NCBI GenBank assembly: GCA_964580495.1
Contig: CAZOKE010000004.1
Location: forward strand, 1-49,664
Length of the DNA stretch: 49,664 bases
Direction: 5' to 3'
DNA from: an uncultured Candidatus Saccharibacteria bacterium
Lineage (GTDB): Bacteria; Patescibacteriota; Doudnabacteria; UBA920; O2-02-FULL-48-8
Under the pieces are notes generated by a model that saw only the letters and a program-made list of their open reading frames with translations, was not told the origin of the DNA and made no database searches. The first letter of the stretch is position 1. Each line of letters starts with the position of its first letter. Below, piece by piece: positions 1-38,506 of the stretch. Made by a program: the position numbers and the translations under genes.

Positions 1-80
1 TTTCGACAGATTTTGTATGTAAACAAATGTAAACCCTTGAGCCGTTCCGTGGGCAGTTAAGAGACATGATTTCCCCTTTT

Positions 81-109
81 TTGACCTACATGTAACTAAT
101 TCGTATAAT
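81..109 (+). promoter_or_regulatory. sigma70-type promoter
   Basis: TTGACC-17 nt-TATAAT, about 30 nt upstream of the ORF at 142. Confidence 0.6.
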
Positions 110-141
110 AACGGCGTCAATTAAGCATTATATTTACAACG

Positions 142-453
142 ATGTCTTGGCTAAGTGAAATCTTTATACTTGTGGGTCTTGTATTAGTAAATGTTGCATG
201 GAACACAAGTAAAGCATGGGGAGTCGCCTTGTTCATAATGGGATGCTTTGCGCTTTTTTATGGCCTTGATGTTTTTATCGATGAGCGGACTAAAAGTCTA
301 TCGGACCGAATTAAGGACTTGGAACTAGAAATAAATACTACAGAGGAAGAAAAACATAAGCGATGGATGAAAGTTAATGATCCTGAAGGATACAGTACAA
401 TGCTTGAAATTGAGTACTCGGCAAGGCAAGCAGAACAAGATAGAAAATCATAA
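142..453 (+). CDS. hypothetical membrane protein (2 N-terminal TM segments, charged tail)
   Basis: 103-aa ORF with ATG start, hydrophobic N-half and an upstream promoter. Confidence 0.7.
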   Translation: MSWLSEIFILVGLVLVNVAWNTSKAWGVALFIMGCFALFYGLDVFIDERTKSLSDRIKDLELEINTTEEEKHKRWMKVNDPEGYSTMLEIEYSARQAEQDRKS

Positions 454-464
454 CTAGATTTTAT

Positions 465-1295
465 ATGGACGAGAAGCTCACTAAACTCAAGTCTAAAATT
501 GCGGAAATAGAACAACTTAAAACCCTCAAAGAGTGGGGGCCTGAATTTCAACTCTGGAAATCGGCGACCGAGCGCTTAGTAAATGATATCTTTGGTCCTG
601 ATTCATTAAAACTCTTTTCGCAACAGACAACTATCTCCTTTTCATATATCGACGATGGCTATAATCATCAACAGTACCTAACAGAATTAGAGAATCGGCA
701 TAAAATCCTAACTGGATTACTTGCGGATTTGCACGAACATCAACCAGTGGAGTCCGAGGGGAGTAAAGATGTCTTAAAAGAGCTTTGGAAAAAGGAACAA
801 GCATTGAAAGAAAATTTATTGCCTACTGTCGAAGCTGAGCGATTACAAGGTTCGTTGATTAAACATTTAGAAGAGACGTTGGTTCCCGATTCTATACCAT
901 TTCTAAGATTCAGGAAGTTGTTGACAGGTCGTCGTTTTCAAACATGGTGGTCAGATATGCAGGGCTACTCAACTGAAAACCCATGGAGCAAAATTGAACC
1001 TTTTCTGGAATTGCTGCAACAACATGAAGCAGAAAAAACTATTAAAAAACGCCTGGAAACGGAAAATCTCTTTGTCGAATCAAGGTCCAATGGTGAAGAC
1101 CAGCATATTTTAGTAGGTCCTAAAGACGGTAGTGGTGAAAAAGCACATATCATAATAGATGGTAAGAGTGGAGAGATTAGGGTTGAAGATAACAGATTAG
1201 AGCCAACTGATCTTGTAAGTAGGATTGTGACGATATTGACTTTACCAAACGGGAAGCAAATCAAAACAACGCGAGAATTGATAGAAGAAATATGA
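465..1295 (+). CDS. hypothetical protein (accessory, possibly defence-associated)
   Basis: 276-aa AT-rich ORF, co-oriented with the nuclease gene; no family recognised with confidence. Confidence 0.75.
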   Translation: MDEKLTKLKSKIAEIEQLKTLKEWGPEFQLWKSATERLVNDIFGPDSLKLFSQQTTISFSYIDDGYNHQQYLTELENRHKILTGLLADLHEHQPVESEGSKDVLKELWKKEQALKENLLPTVEAERLQGSLIKHLEETLVPDSIPFLRFRKLLTGRRFQTWWSDMQGYSTENPWSKIEPFLELLQQHEAEKTIKKRLETENLFVESRSNGEDQHILVGPKDGSGEKAHIIIDGKSGEIRVEDNRLEPTDLVSRIVTILTLPNGKQIKTTRELIEEI

Positions 1296-1365
1296 AGATT
1301 AAATAAATGTTAAAATGCTTTTATATCCTCATAGCACAATAAGAAAATACAACTAAGATAAGTAT

Positions 1366-2223
1366 ATGAACTATTTTGTCTTCCACGTTTCAGACCAATC
1401 TAGATATGGTATTCAAAAAACGGGTATAGAGATTTTTAACGATCTGGTTAAAAGCAAACTGGTGTGGGGTTTTGGTCAGCACACGGCGAATAGGAAGGCT
1501 ATTCAGCCAGGAGATAAGGTACTATTTTATTTAACTGGCCTTAACAATCAGGTTTTCTTAGGTGCAGCGACGTTAAAATCTGGTGCATATACTGACGAAG
1601 CCCATCAATCCGATTCTTGGTTCTTGGATAAAGATATGCTTAGGATTGATCTTGAGGATATAATCGTATTTGATGAACCAAAGCCACGGCAATCATTTAT
1701 AAGCTTGCAATGGAGGCCTGCCCAGGGAGGCTCAAGTAAAATCTCGGAACGCGATTTTATGACTGTGATGGGCGCTGTACCTGACAAAGTTCAGATAATC
1801 TCTGAAGTTGAAAGTGAAATGGCGTTTGCACTGGAAAAGTACCTTGAAGAGTTTATTGTAGATAATTGGGACAAAATAGATTTTGGAGAAAAATTAAAAT
1901 TATTTGTAGATAAAGATGGTAATACAGGTCAGCAGTATTTTACCGAGGAAGTTGGATATATAGATATTCTCGCTCAGGATAAAGATGACAATTTTGTTGT
2001 GATTGAACTCAAAAAGGGCAGGAAAAATGATGAGGTTATAGGCCAGGTTTTGAGATATATGGGTTGGGTTAGAAATAATTTATTGAAAAACAATCAGACT
2101 GTACTCGGATTAATTATAGTCGGTGATAAAGATCCAAAGCTGGAGTATGCTCTTGGTGAAATATCAGACAAGGTCCAAATCAAACTATATTCTATCAATT
2201 TTAAACTTCAAGATTATAGATAG
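1366..2223 (+). CDS. EVE-domain / NucS-like PD-(D/E)XK endonuclease fusion
   Basis: N-terminal WGFG...IQPGDKVLFY (EVE/PUA-like); C-terminal IDILAQD..VVIELK..IGQVLRYMGW (NucS/DUF91-type nuclease motifs). Confidence 0.8.
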   Translation: MNYFVFHVSDQSRYGIQKTGIEIFNDLVKSKLVWGFGQHTANRKAIQPGDKVLFYLTGLNNQVFLGAATLKSGAYTDEAHQSDSWFLDKDMLRIDLEDIIVFDEPKPRQSFISLQWRPAQGGSSKISERDFMTVMGAVPDKVQIISEVESEMAFALEKYLEEFIVDNWDKIDFGEKLKLFVDKDGNTGQQYFTEEVGYIDILAQDKDDNFVVIELKKGRKNDEVIGQVLRYMGWVRNNLLKNNQTVLGLIIVGDKDPKLEYALGEISDKVQIKLYSINFKLQDYR

Positions 2224-2299
2224 ACCATGGCAGAGACTGTGCATAACCGTTTTGACAATAAGATTTAAAAAATAGGATAATTAGACCAGAAGACATACA

Positions 2300-2328
2300 T
2301 TGACTGAAAACAAAATAAATATTACACT
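2300..2328 (+). promoter_or_regulatory. sigma70-type promoter of the candidate ncRNA
   Basis: TTGACT-17 nt-TACACT; a second TTGACA lies at about 2252. Confidence 0.55.
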
Positions 2329-2334
2329 GTTGCT

Positions 2335-3090
2335 TCGCGTTCCCGACTAGCTTTTACAATACCTCTTACTAAAGAAGAGGGTAAGATCTGTTCTTAATAA
2401 AACAAAAACCCTCATACATATAGCATGAGGGTCCGTGCCTGGAACTGAGTTAATTGCTCAGTTTTTTGTTTACCCTATATATTTCAATAAGGTATATCGA
2501 GGGATTTTCTCGAAATTCCTCGACCGATACAAGCTGCCCATTTAAGGGATTCCTGTACCTTCGATATGTTGGTTGTTCCATTGGAACTTCCCATACCTAC
2601 TAAATAAATTTTTGGCGGGTAGGTTTACCGTCCCACTCAACGACGGATTTACTACCTTAAATTTATCGGTATCAAAAAAACTTGTACCAGAAGGCGGGCG
2701 TAAGGGCAGTAAACCCTTTTGGGGAATACGCCTTGCGGCGCATGGTCTTTTGGAAAAAACCTTACGCCAACCTTCAGACACAAGTTTAGTGTCGGGTGTA
2801 CTGCTGATAATGGCGACCAAACCATGTTTGTGAAGCTACACAGTGTTAACTGTTAAGAAAATTTTAACAGCTGAGCATTATAATGTCAATTCGAGGTGGC
2901 TGACGCCGTTTAAACACTCTCATGTGTTATAGCTATAGGCGATAGTGCTGTCTTTGTTTATGTTTCAATAGATTTTATCATTCCGTAACTTTGCATAATC
3001 CAATCCTCGATCTGGTTTAAAGAATTTCGCAGGGTGTCCACCAAAATAGGAAATTTGATTTAAAATTTAACCGGCTGCAGGCCGGTTTTT
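2335..3090 (+). ncRNA. candidate large structured ncRNA (~750 nt)
   Basis: No credible ORF; at least 12 nested helices and two possible pseudoknots; promoter upstream and intrinsic terminator downstream. Confidence 0.6.
3069..3090 (+). terminator. intrinsic terminator
   Basis: AACCGGC-tgcag-GCCGGTT followed by a T tract. Confidence 0.7.
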
Positions 3091-3091
3091 A

Positions 3092-3123
3092 TACTCAGTA
3101 CTTAGTACTCAGAACACAGTACT
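3092..3123. repeat. heptamer tandem repeat (tactcag/tacttag)
   Basis: tactcag tacttag tactcag aacacag tact. Confidence 0.75.
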
Positions 3124-3124
3124 T

Positions 3125-4903
3125 TTATCTCCGTTTCGTATCAATGTACCAGTGGCTCACATCTAAGAAGCGCTCCTGCGGATATATTATGGTATCGAGA
3201 TCAAACCCATGCTCTTTTTTAGGCAAGCTATACAAGTAAATCGCGCTGTCCAGGAAAATCGCCGGAATTTCTTGGGTAATTATAGCTTGGAATTGCTGGT
3301 AATCCTTGCTTCGGACATTTGTGTCATTGGTCCGGCGCGCTTCGGTGAGTAATTTGTCCACGGTAGGATTGGAAAAACCCGAAAGGTTGAGTCCTGGGTC
3401 ATGGGCTTGCGACGAATGCCAGAAAGGGAAAGGATCTGGATCAGCCCCGGTGTTTTCCGAAAACACTAAAGCGTCAAAATTCCGCGGCCGAATATATTGA
3501 TTGTCCAAATCCTGGGCAGAAACTACTACCAAATGGACTGTGGCCCCGACCTTGGCCCACTGGCCTTGGATGATTTGGGCGGTTTTGACGTTCAGGGGCA
3601 TGGCGTTTGTCGCTAAATTGAATTCCAAATTTTGCCGAACTTGGTTTTTGCCCTGTTTGAGCATCCTGTATCGCTGGTTGCTTGCGGGATCAAGCTGCCA
3701 GCCGGCTTTGTCGAGAATACTGCCGGCTTCATCCAAATTGAAATGTGTTGCTTGCTCCAGGGACGGATCGTAACCCAGGTTTCCTTTTATGATCGGCCCG
3801 TAATCAGGTTCTGCTAACCCCAAAAACACATCGTTTATGATCGGCTGCCGGTCAGTGGCTAGCCATAAAGCTTGGCGCACGGCTTTTTGGGACAGAATTG
3901 GATTTTTTGGGAGGTTAAAAAATACGGCTTGGTATTGGGGCAGGCTGATCCGGTACTGATTTTGCCTGTCTGAATTTTCCAAAAACATTTTTTTGTCAAA
4001 CGGGAGGAAACCCAAGCTTTGAATATCTTTGGATTGGTAAGCCTGGATTAGGGCATCCGTGTCCGGGTAGAATTTGAAAGTGAAATAAGTAATAAAGGGC
4101 GAGCTGCTGTAGTATTGGTTATTGGCTTTGAGGGTAATCGATTTGATGGTGCCGTCTGGAGTTTTCCTAATTTCTCGGATCATATACGGCCCGGAACCGA
4201 TTGGGCTCAGGTTTAAGTCCGAAAGCCGGAAATTACTAGCACTAAGATTGCTCCAAATGTGTTGGGGTAGGATGGCGAGCGTGAAGTTGGTGATAAACGA
4301 GGCGGAAACCTCATGCAGAGTGACCCGTACCGTCAGGTCATCGACTTTCTCCACTTTCACGCGATTCCAGTTGGAGATCAAAGGCGAGTCGAAATTTGGA
4401 TTTTGGATCGTTTGGATGGTGTAGGTGATGTCGTCGCTGGTAATTGGTTTGCCGTCCTGCCATTTGAGGCCTGGGCGCAGCTGGATGGTGTAAGTTTTTT
4501 GGTCAGCTGAAATTGCCGGCAGGCCCTGCGCTAAATCCGGGGCCAAATTCATATTTTTATCGAATTTGAGCAGTTGGCCATAGATTAGTTTCGTCAGGTC
4601 CAGGTCCACTGGGGAAGATGGAGCCAGAACAGGGTTTATAAATCTCGGCTGCCCGACCAAGCCTTCGACATGCTCGCCGCCATAATCGGGGATGTTCGAT
4701 TCACCCGAAAAGAAATACGCGTGTACTAAAAAACCGCCGGCGAGGAGAAAGGCTGCGGCCGTGGCGGTGAAAACTGCAAAATCTTTTTTTGTGATGCTTT
4801 CAAGAATTTGCGGCAGGTGGCGCGATCGAACGCGCGGTAACATCCGCAAGCCCTGCCATGCCCGCTGTAAAAAATTTTTTACTTGATTAAACCAGTTTGG
4901 CAT
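3125..4903 (-). CDS. ABC transporter peptide/nickel substrate-binding protein (OppA/DppA, family 5)
   Basis: PDLA..LRPGLKWQDGKPITSDD and PIGSGPY motifs with an N-terminal TM anchor; ATG at 4903 preferred over the ORF-track start. Confidence 0.9.
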   Translation of the reverse strand: MPNWFNQVKNFLQRAWQGLRMLPRVRSRHLPQILESITKKDFAVFTATAAAFLLAGGFLVHAYFFSGESNIPDYGGEHVEGLVGQPRFINPVLAPSSPVDLDLTKLIYGQLLKFDKNMNLAPDLAQGLPAISADQKTYTIQLRPGLKWQDGKPITSDDITYTIQTIQNPNFDSPLISNWNRVKVEKVDDLTVRVTLHEVSASFITNFTLAILPQHIWSNLSASNFRLSDLNLSPIGSGPYMIREIRKTPDGTIKSITLKANNQYYSSSPFITYFTFKFYPDTDALIQAYQSKDIQSLGFLPFDKKMFLENSDRQNQYRISLPQYQAVFFNLPKNPILSQKAVRQALWLATDRQPIINDVFLGLAEPDYGPIIKGNLGYDPSLEQATHFNLDEAGSILDKAGWQLDPASNQRYRMLKQGKNQVRQNLEFNLATNAMPLNVKTAQIIQGQWAKVGATVHLVVVSAQDLDNQYIRPRNFDALVFSENTGADPDPFPFWHSSQAHDPGLNLSGFSNPTVDKLLTEARRTNDTNVRSKDYQQFQAIITQEIPAIFLDSAIYLYSLPKKEHGFDLDTIIYPQERFLDVSHWYIDTKRR

Positions 4904-4916
4904 GATTTGGGGCAAA

Positions 4917-5144
4917 CTATTTGAGGAACAAGACGAGCACTGAGAGTCCGACAAAGATCACAGCCAAAGCGACAGTGAAATAATGGAGTCCTCGGGCCAG
5001 GCCACGCTTGGCGCGGAATACGGAACCCTCACCGCCAAAAACCGTGGACAGGCCGCCTTCGCGCTGCTGCATCAAAACCGAAGCGACGAGGAGCACATCA
5101 ACAATGATGAGGACGAAAGTCAGCAAACTCTGCGATATTTTCAT
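4917..5144 (-). CDS. secG: preprotein translocase subunit SecG
   Basis: 75 aa, two TM segments, VLMQQREGGLSTVFGG motif. Confidence 0.9.
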   Translation of the reverse strand: MKISQSLLTFVLIIVDVLLVASVLMQQREGGLSTVFGGEGSVFRAKRGLARGLHYFTVALAVIFVGLSVLVLFLK

Positions 5145-38432: not shown

Positions 38433-38506
38433 GGTGGGTGTGGGAGGGATCGAACCTCCGACCCTCTGCTTAAAAGGCAGGTGCTCTACCACTGAGCTAC
38501 ACACCC
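38432..38506 (-). tRNA. tRNA-Lys (anticodon UUU)
   Basis: GGGTGTGTAGCTCAGTGGTAGAGC..CTGC-CTTTTAA-GCAG..GGTTCGATCC..CACACCCACCA; cloverleaf with encoded CCA. Confidence 0.96.

Follow-up and report, generated by a model that had tools for sequence, protein, structure and literature searches.

In the window studied here, a stretch of 49,664 nucleotides from an uncultured Candidatus Saccharibacteria bacterium, the gap at positions 2224–3124 between an EVE/PD-(D/E)XK gene and a solute-binding-protein gene holds, on sequence evidence, a separate RNA gene, real and previously undescribed, that is encoded on the minus strand. The conserved, structured RNA of about 180 nt occupies positions 2672–2852 (minus strand) and was recognized by a covariance model (CM), by BLASTn, by folding (z -4.24 for the minus strand of 2671–2852) and by covariation. 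A preliminary description had placed a highly structured non-coding RNA of about 750 nt on the plus strand of positions 2300–3090, with its own promoter and terminator. What survives of it is a novel pseudoknotted non-coding RNA in a genome of the Saccharibacteria order; the large size, the 750-nt extent and the plus strand do not. The conserved unit measures only about 180 nt, and nothing but 2672–2852 is conserved elsewhere.

The absence of coding content from the gap holds. No open reading frame (ORF) longer than 92 amino acids was present in 2224–3124 according to the ORF listing, and the two longest ORFs gave no match in a Pfam search. Pairwise alignment of the window with its homologue in a Saccharibacteria metagenome-assembled genome (G036) revealed compensatory changes together with two 2-nt indels within the block, which is incompatible with coding. 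A protein-coding reading of the two longest ORFs was rejected on the Pfam result and the indels, and no conserved frame was found at 2542–2820 (minus) or 2573–2833 (plus), where the same indels, the compensatory stem substitutions and the lack of Pfam matches were taken into account.

The RNA was compared with known families. At the gathering score, Rfam 15 detected only a tRNA in the window (38435–38506). When the threshold was lowered to E≤10 for 2150–3200, seven chance-level matches were obtained (11–24 bits, against cut-offs of 50–100), none of them covering the minus-strand core, and seven homologous loci searched at E≤1 provided only tRNAs and chance matches. The preliminary remark that signatures of RNase P RNA, tmRNA and introns are missing was borne out, no match being found among the 4227 families of Rfam 15, which include GOLLD, ROOL and OLE. 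Identity with RNase P RNA was rejected, as the genome carries RF00010 on contig 16 (5143–5525, 98.2 bits), and so was identity with tmRNA, located on contig 18 (RF00023, 21627–22012, 106.7 bits); ARAGORN reported no tmRNA in the window. The 6S identity was also rejected, because fold and distribution are unfit and the RF00013 search detected no 6S RNA in the window's genome, although the control of this search found 6S in only 5 of 14 genomes. A literature search retrieved no description of the RNA family.

A sigma-70-type promoter was identified immediately upstream of the conserved unit (2861–2889, minus strand). It consists of the -35 box TTGACA (2889–2884), a 17-nt spacer and the -10 box TAAAAT (2866–2861), matches the consensus at 11 of 12 positions in the promoter scan and has an extended -10 (TG at 2869–2868), which would set the transcription start near 2852–2854. 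Promoters at the same distance were scored by the scan in three homologous loci (12/12 in L024, 11/12 in L026 and 9/12 in L037), those of the other examined members were read by eye, and in all members examined a consensus promoter is directed into the block. Conserved sequence begins just past the -10 box, within a few bases, and ends at a U-tract, so that in the window it runs from about 2852 to about 2672. Intrinsic termination of the RNA probably occurs at this U7 tract (2674–2680, minus strand), which was read from the sequence directly after the closing helix P1' described below. The counterparts of the tract in the family range from U4 to U7, with at least six U in 8 of the 12 members read by eye. 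The ends of the RNA were placed from the promoter, the U-tract and the limits of conservation.

The preliminary assignment to the plus strand had to be reversed. Among the annotated pairs, 43 G–U cells were counted versus 3 A–C cells, and 97.0% of the cells are paired on the minus strand versus 86.9% on the complement. The capping loops read GCAA, GAAA or AAAA on the minus strand, and the CM gave 105–162 bits to true members against roughly 18–35 bits to the reverse strands; on the window, model R1 matched 2660–2849 of the minus strand with 142.9 bits (E 1.9e-24). The asymmetry of G–U and A–C, the loops, the CM scores and the orientation of the promoters, including those of the homologues, indicate that the RNA is encoded on the minus strand.

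Secondary structure and covariation

Covariation supports a compact predicted fold in which the closing helix P1' and a P4 rod carry two capped hairpins, P7 and P6, and in whose multiloop the 5' arm (hairpin Pa plus linker) would dock by means of two pseudoknot helices, PK1 and P2. The elements are given here in the orientation of the RNA, with window coordinates on the minus strand. Hairpin Pa (2825–2810) pairs AUGG (2825–2822) with CCAU (2813–2810); for each of its four pairs, some members of the family show changes on both sides, and 100% of the cells are paired. The Pa loop contains UGGUC, which forms PK1 (2819–2815 with 2747–2743) with GACCA. Even though PK1 lies outside the covariance model, 100% of its cells are paired and three of the five pairs change on both sides, the variants being GGUC/GACC, GGAC/GUCC, GAAC/GUUC, GAUC/GAUC and GGUU/AACC. 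The second pseudoknot helix, P2 (2804–2794 with 2716–2706), joins GCAGUA(CACCC) to (GGGUU)UACUGC. In 10 of 11 sequences a script located a helix of 8–17 bp at the equivalent position, its sequence differing from one member to the next, and a split version was recognized by eye in L030. When each sequence was compared with 200 shuffles, none reached the P2 helix for six of the eleven sequences and 1–11 reached it for the other five. Two pseudoknots had been proposed in the preliminary description. One of them, 2706–2711 with 2799–2804, is supported by covariation and corresponds, in extended form, to P2. The other, 2741–2746 with 2821–2826, is out of register, lying one register off the conserved PK1 (2815–2819 with 2743–2747).

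Hairpin P3 (2793–2777) has the sequence GACAC-UAAACUU-GUGUC, and its 3' half is the 5' strand of P1'. It is nearly invariant in the family, and a one-sided A-to-G change in L030 keeps the pairing. P1' (2787–2777 with 2688–2678) pairs AAACUUGUGUC with the 3' strand GGUACAAGUUU; it was seen in the minimum-free-energy and centroid folds and in RNAalifold, and it covaries in divergent members (AAAUCUGU/AUGGAUUU in L037 and AAACCGUU/AACGGUUU in L051). The P4 rod (2775–2771 plus 2768–2760 with 2705–2697 plus 2694–2690) delimits the domain 2690–2775 and was already present in the preliminary description as the helix 2690–2705/2760–2775. It encloses hairpin P7 (2741–2728), with a GCAA loop in the window, and hairpin P6 (2724–2713), whose loop is AAAA in the window and GAAA in five relatives. 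Changes on both sides were observed in 7 of the 11 pairs of P4 and in 3 of the 4 pairs of P7.

Compensatory changes, which were looked for in the homologues, are thus present in the stems. RNAalifold, run on a nine-sequence MAFFT alignment, independently predicted Pa, P1', P4 and P7, with compensatory changes in 14 of 35 pairs. In an 11-sequence alignment fitted to the structure of the covariance model, 97.0% of the 396 cells are paired, compared with 85.6 ± 1.0 in shuffles, and 21 of the 37 pairs change on both sides, compared with 8.8 ± 1.7. None of 500 shuffles reached any of the five pairing measures, and only 32–48% of the cells remained paired after the partners were slid by 1–3 columns.

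Family members and their genomic surroundings

Members of the family were collected by several routes. BLASTn of 2300–3090 against 60 relatives yielded one meaningful match, in G036 (73% identity over 2668–2793, E 2.6e-11), the other six matches spanning 22–70 nt with E values of 1e-4 to 8e-3. With the core as query, G036 was again the only genome retrieved among 146 of the order; the class-level search covered the same 146 genomes and added nothing. Metagenomic and viral sequences were searched with an exact gapped pattern made from two invariant blocks. This pattern was found in one IMG/VR contig, in G036 and in 12 metagenome contigs, eight of which are true homologues (six distinct sequences) and four chance matches (L022, L027, L028 and L033, left out of the counts). 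Loci L021, L025 and L032 duplicate L002, L023 and L020, respectively, and each was counted once. A search with model R1 added three genomes (G088, G084 and G089) and, with the filters off, a divergent copy upstream of a small ORF in G124, whereas a 31-bit match in G053 (L039) looked unrelated by eye and was discarded.

The resulting 13 distinct members come from 6 of the 146 Saccharimonadales species genomes, the window's genome included, from 6 metagenome sequences and from 1 IMG/VR 'viral' contig. The RNA occurs as one copy per genome. It was found neither in the two other genomes of the window's genus nor in 144 sampled Patescibacteria genomes of other orders. BLASTn against GenBank phages and PLSDB plasmids gave zero matches, and a relaxed pattern scan of viral contigs provided nine loci, none matching the model at E≤0.1. 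As far as searched, the family does not extend beyond a small number of Saccharimonadales (Saccharibacteria) and the mobile DNA associated with them.

The gene that follows the RNA was analysed in the 13 loci. A short gene lies 40–100 nt downstream on the RNA's strand in 12 of them: nine carry a small ORF at 60–100 nt, and three a tRNA in its place (Thr-CGU, Ser-GCU and one long-arm tRNA), with no small ORF within the 2.7–14 kb of DNA fetched for these three. In two loci the small ORF is followed by a tRNA. Three loci (L024, L026 and L037) were scanned between the RNA and the next same-strand gene, and no promoter-like site was found in any of them. The small protein has 41–66 aa, the motif I/V-F/Y-x5-L-R-N/D-G-K-x-I/V-Y-A-K-x-x-G-x-K-x-F-P and a lysine-rich tail. 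Neither Pfam nor NCBIfam matched it, one weak PHROG of unknown function was retrieved, and only ten relatives were found among 5.8 billion protein clusters. AlphaFold predicted four short strands and a disordered tail (mean pLDDT 78); Foldseek found no match in the PDB at E≤0.001, and the best hit of a PDB profile search, TRAP/MtrB, was not significant (E 0.05). The protein occurs in 7 of the 146 genomes of the order. All five strong matches (E<1e-15) have the RNA directly upstream, whereas the weak matches in G135 and G056, near which no RNA was seen with the model filters off, were rejected.

No copy of the small protein was found in the window's genome by a search whose control detected it in four of four other carriers. 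In the window no homologous gene, neither small ORF nor tRNA, comes after the RNA, and the adjoining 270 nt show no relation to any homologue. A 43-aa ORF located there (2581–2450, minus strand) was considered as a diverged member of the small-protein family and rejected, as hhalign gave a probability of 0.09% and tblastn on 2201–2700 produced only noise. Because the genome lacks the protein and this ORF is unrelated, the window's RNA is an orphan, and an intact one: it scores 143 bits, retains all the predicted helices and has an 11/12 promoter.

Other particularities of these downstream regions were observed. At L020 (~2190–2290), L025 (3771–3946), L021 (442–638) and L030 (~3150–3300), tRNAs lie inside 13–37 nt stems formed by their own leader and trailer, and a terminator overlaps the leader/trailer stem; tRNA transcription units of this form are unusual. 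Blocks conserved across two genera occur in the spacer that separates the RNA from the ORF (GUGGCUACAA... and GCAAGGG... at L036 ~1420–1500 and L051 ~1640–1715, minus strand), and in L037 and L038 a stem appears to sequester the AUG of the small ORF; a second regulatory element may therefore exist between the RNA and the small ORF.

Links to mobile DNA were also inspected. In 5 of the 13 loci the RNA is preceded on its own strand by an IS1595-family transposase or a remnant of one, and in G036, G084 and G124 this is the only IS1595 copy. Between the G036 and G084 loci, DNA identity is about 69% across the transposase gene and its upstream region, and similarity in the flanks is also seen between G036 and G124 and between G084 and G089. 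The four IS-linked loci of G036, G084, G124 and G089 would accordingly descend from one inherited arrangement, which leaves about two independent associations, the second being L023, with a transposase 40% identical. In the order, 20 of the 23 IS1595 copies have no RNA nearby; no convincing terminal repeats enclosing the RNA were found, and the window's genome has no IS1595-type transposase. Tyrosine integrases adjoin two loci, and several members are situated among ordinary chromosomal genes (S1-domain protein, adenylosuccinate lyase, SpoU methylase).

The exact DnaA-box-like sequence TTATCCACA was present in 16 of the 39 fetched loci, once or twice per 2–10 kb (for instance L026 1191–1199, L029 4887–4895 and L038 1466–1474). 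This sequence is often found on the RNA's own strand, 280–630 nt downstream of it, and forms a cluster upstream of the IS1595 gene in L021. The idea of a DnaA box or origin was dismissed, since the 49.6-kb window has no exact TTATCCACA and its one-mismatch count is at chance (16 versus 10.3 ± 3.6).

The remainder of the preliminary interval and the neighbouring DNA

The helices of the preliminary description do exist. All 13 segment pairs were found where they had been placed, 12 of them fully Watson–Crick and one (2497–2507/2513–2523) with ten Watson–Crick pairs and one G–T. Compared with dinucleotide shuffles, 2335–3090 folds with z -5.27 on the plus strand and z -6.25 on the minus strand, and 0 of 20 shuffles were as good on either strand. 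Nevertheless, a plus-strand RNA of 750 nt running from a promoter at 2300–2328 to a terminator at 3069–3090 is largely refuted and now close to untenable. Conservation is confined to 2672–2852, and the G–U and A–C counts and the promoters point to the minus strand. Back-to-back terminators between 2406 and 2465 would halt a plus transcript after about 140 nt, and 2890–3068 is without structure. As for the brackets, the sequence TTGACT-17-TACACT is present at 2300–2328, but its match is weak (9/12) and it was not accepted as the start of the RNA; the promoter scan gave seven promoter-like sites versus 3.3 ± 1.8 in shuffles. A hairpin followed by a T-run is likewise present at 3069–3087, but very probably belongs to the neighbouring gene. 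It lies directly after the stop (3125) of the minus-strand solute-binding-protein gene, and in another genome of the genus (G001) a hairpin is found in the same place after a 67%-identical orthologue; owing to this position and to the hairpin in G001, it is most likely the terminator of that gene.

The RNA does not include the remaining ~570 nt of the interval. On the 3' side of the RNA, 2400–2671 (minus strand) is a tail found only in the window, made of consecutive near-perfect hairpins (z -6.23 for the minus strand of 2400–2670), for which zero homologues were obtained anywhere searched. The terminator scan located an intrinsic terminator with a 12-bp stem and a T-run at 2434–2406 (minus strand), which ends this tail and stands back to back with a terminator-like hairpin and T-run on the plus strand (2441–2465) that may end the convergent EVE/PD-(D/E)XK transcript. 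The 43-aa ORF mentioned above lies inside the tail, which may be a read-through tail, the 3' untranslated regions of two convergent units, or a relic of DNA formerly downstream of the RNA. A tRNA remnant in it was rejected: ARAGORN reported none by default, and a tRNA-Cys(aca) at 2492–2570 (plus strand), obtained in a relaxed run only at ps80, was taken as a false positive. On the 5' side, 2890–3068 is an unstructured spacer between the promoter of the RNA and the neighbour's terminator, without meaningful homology (z +0.61 on the minus strand, 141 of 200 shuffles folding as well). A 16-mer resembling a tRNA 3' end at 3028–3043 was considered as an attachment site and discarded, being unique in the genome with up to two mismatches. 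An ORF-free, helix-rich gap can therefore be a mosaic, here of one real RNA, terminators and lineage-specific hairpins.

A plus-strand promoter-like site better than that of 2300–2328 was noticed at 2252–2281 (TTGACA-18-GATAAT, 11/12). Together with the plus terminator (2441–2472) some 160–190 nt later, it could define a short plus transcript; this arrangement was conserved nowhere searched.

The window's genome (G000) comprises 841 kb in 40 contigs and is 98.4% complete, and the window begins at a contig end. The left neighbour of the gap is the EVE/PD-(D/E)XK gene (1366–2223, plus strand, stop at 2223) and the right neighbour the solute-binding-protein gene (3125–4954, minus strand). Positions 1–3100 form a block of low GC content (33–39%, versus 46–54% beyond 3150), whose ORFs (142–453, 465–1295 and 1366–2223) are all on the plus strand. 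Its EVE plus PD-(D/E)XK protein matches the PADLOC candidate defence family PDC-S02 (E 1e-41) and its 276-aa protein weakly matches PDC-S35 (3.8e-5), and the block is probably an accessory or defence island. The RNA sits at its edge. In G001, neither the RNA nor the low-GC block follows the orthologous solute-binding-protein gene. A 7-nt tandem repeat (TACTCAG x 4.6) at 3092–3123 separates the terminator hairpin from the stop of the solute-binding-protein gene. Elsewhere in G001 (L057, 3440–3710), a TTGACA-17-TATACT promoter downstream of a tRNA is separated from the next gene by about 200 nt that contain no ORF and may be another untranslated leader or small RNA.

Interpretation and comparison with known systems

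The reading that we favour, with a confidence a little short of even, is that of an autonomous protein-binding small RNA, because the unit extends from promoter to U-tract, is intact in a genome without the protein and tolerates different downstream genes. Transcription would proceed from the near-consensus sigma-70 promoter (2889–2861), starting at about 2852. Since P1' is flanked by an A-tract and by U7, it most likely doubles as an intrinsic terminator, which would release a stand-alone RNA of about 180 nt. Such an RNA would be autonomous and abundant, and its folded core would bind a protein, the obvious partner in most relatives being the lysine-rich beta-protein of 41–66 aa encoded 60–100 nt downstream. 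Because the gene of this protein is placed behind the RNA's own terminator, the RNA would be produced in excess over the protein. The window's copy, with no such protein in its genome, would act alone or with another partner. The RNA ends, the termination at P1'/U7 and the binding of the small protein are putative.

Several points weigh against the autonomous RNA. The proposed partner, a putative RNA-binding protein, has no match to a known family or fold. The short same-strand gene of 12 of the 13 loci, with no promoter in between in the three scanned, fits a cis-regulator equally well. The U-tract is only U4–U5 in 4 of 12 members and the putative terminator would hold a folded insert of about 95 nt; if read-through were the rule, the RNA may be a 5' leader. 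Start, end and abundance are deduced from the DNA, the sequencing runs listed for 2250–3150 containing no RNA run and only four DNA runs, from one soil-metagenome study. Regarding the structure, the 11-sequence statistics come from an alignment fitted to the model and lean to its nested helices, and the near-invariance of P1' and P3 in nine members stems in part from the search pattern, which required both. Moreover, P3 and P1' compete for GUGUC, the P2 found by script overlaps the 3' arm of P6 by 2–5 nt in 10 of 11 sequences, and downstream of P1' 7 of 11 sequences have a segment that could pair with ACAAGUUU. Competing local helices of this kind are more often a property of switches than of static scaffolds.

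The main rival, doubtful but to be taken seriously, is a cis-acting attenuator or riboswitch-like leader whose pseudoknotted domain senses the co-encoded basic protein or a small molecule. In the folded state P1' would close and terminate with the U-tract, and when P3 holds GUGUC the polymerase would read through into the small ORF or tRNA. The closely following gene in 12 of 13 loci and the lack of a promoter-like site before the ORF in L024, L026 and L037 are expected of such a leader, as are the resemblance of P1' with its A- and U-tracts to a terminator, the mutually exclusive pairings (P3/P1' via GUGUC, P2/P6) and the co-occurrence of RNA and protein in five of five strong cases. However, the downstream gene is inconstant (ORF, tRNA or nothing), with three further loci devoid of the ORF within 2.7–14 kb, and no ligand or gene-function logic joins a tRNA to a basic mini-protein; the window's genome lacks the protein and yet carries an intact copy of the RNA (143 bits, 11/12 promoter), followed by 270 nt unrelated to any homologue. 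The same alternative pairings could be drawn into a more speculative and rather unlikely proposal, a new RNA class acting as a ligand- or protein-triggered strand-exchange switch or as a self-processing ribozyme, in which the 5' arm invades the P5, P6 and P3 hairpins to form PK1, P2 and P1', paired with a new mini-protein and spread by IS1595/integrase elements among Saccharibacteria. A plain self-cleaving ribozyme that cuts itself off a co-transcribed tRNA or mRNA seems very improbable. Its compact double-pseudoknot fold of ~180 nt with invariant junction nucleotides and its position directly upstream of tRNAs in three loci and next to integrases or IS elements would suit one, the neighbourhood of tRNAs and mobile elements being a common setting of small ribozymes, yet no Rfam ribozyme family matches, no cleavage site can be deduced, and the built-in U-tract can already end the RNA.

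The mobile surroundings bear on two further explanations. An addiction or defence pair laid out like a type III toxin–antitoxin system, in which the RNA neutralizes the protein and orphan RNAs are anti-addiction or relic copies, is improbable. It would account for the internal terminator between RNA and protein in the gene order, for the patchy presence (6 of the 146 genomes, the two others of the genus not among them), for the mobile or accessory setting (IS1595 in 5 of 13 loci, integrases at two, one IMG/VR contig) and for the window's copy bordering a low-GC island with a PDC-S02 candidate of PADLOC (E 1e-41). Against it, the tandem repeat array that characterizes type III antitoxin RNAs is missing, and the 41–66 aa protein has neither a match to a nuclease family or fold nor a PADLOC-type annotation; the four IS-linked loci are one syntenic lineage rather than independent events, 20 of 23 IS1595 copies lack the RNA, and several loci lie among ordinary chromosomal genes. 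A DNA-level element instead of an RNA (attachment site, transposon end or single-strand origin) is scarcely credible. The adjoining IS1595 and integrase genes and the flanking segments AAACTTGT.../...ACAAGTTT, which are inverted repeats, agree with it, but this element would leave unexplained the strand asymmetry (43 G–U versus 3 A–C), the GNRA-type loops on one strand only, the consensus promoter pointing into the block in every examined member, the covarying pseudoknots, and the single copy per genome with no terminal-repeat partner.

Saccharibacteria are ultra-small epibionts with genomes of about 0.8 Mb and very little non-coding DNA, and for this reason an RNA of 180 nt that has a strong promoter and two covarying pseudoknots is unlikely to be idle. 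Similarly complex RNA folds have in most cases proved to be ribozymes, riboswitches or ribonucleoprotein scaffolds. The RNA, new to Rfam 15 and accompanied by an equally unknown mini-protein, is a good candidate for biochemical work and offers a way into gene regulation or the biology of mobile elements in CPR bacteria.

Among the known systems, 6S RNA shares the length of ~180 nt and the strong promoter, and ssrS-ygfA is an example of a 6S gene often co-transcribed with a downstream ORF. The RNA described here, by contrast, is branched and pseudoknotted with a free 5' arm of 75 nt, whereas 6S is a rod with a central bubble; 6S is also near-universal within a lineage, while presence in 6 of 146 genomes indicates that this RNA is not a housekeeping one. 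The preliminary likeness in size to GOLLD, ROOL and OLE is lost, because the conserved unit has only ~180 nt and those RNAs are three to four times larger, and no cmscan match was obtained at E≤10. What is shared with them is the character of an orphan, highly structured and pseudoknotted bacterial non-coding RNA, sometimes carried on mobile or viral DNA.

Type III toxin–antitoxin systems (ToxIN-like) offer the same succession of promoter, pseudoknot-forming RNA, internal terminator and protein gene, and the same patchy, mobile-linked occurrence. Their antitoxin is typically composed of tandem repeats of ~36 nt upstream of an endoribonuclease toxin gene, whereas here a single 180-nt unit is present (the only array near it, with none detected in 2200–3090, is the 7-nt repeat of 3092–3123), the protein is a basic beta-protein of 41–66 aa without nuclease signature, and the RNA also occurs with a tRNA or without partner. 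Protein-binding leaders and terminating riboswitches have in common with this RNA a covarying pseudoknotted 5' element, a U-tract terminator before a short gene and alternative pairings such as P3 versus P1'. The RNA of the window differs from them in having no Rfam match, in the variable downstream gene, in a closing helix that would itself be the terminator stem, and in the intact orphan copy of its genome.

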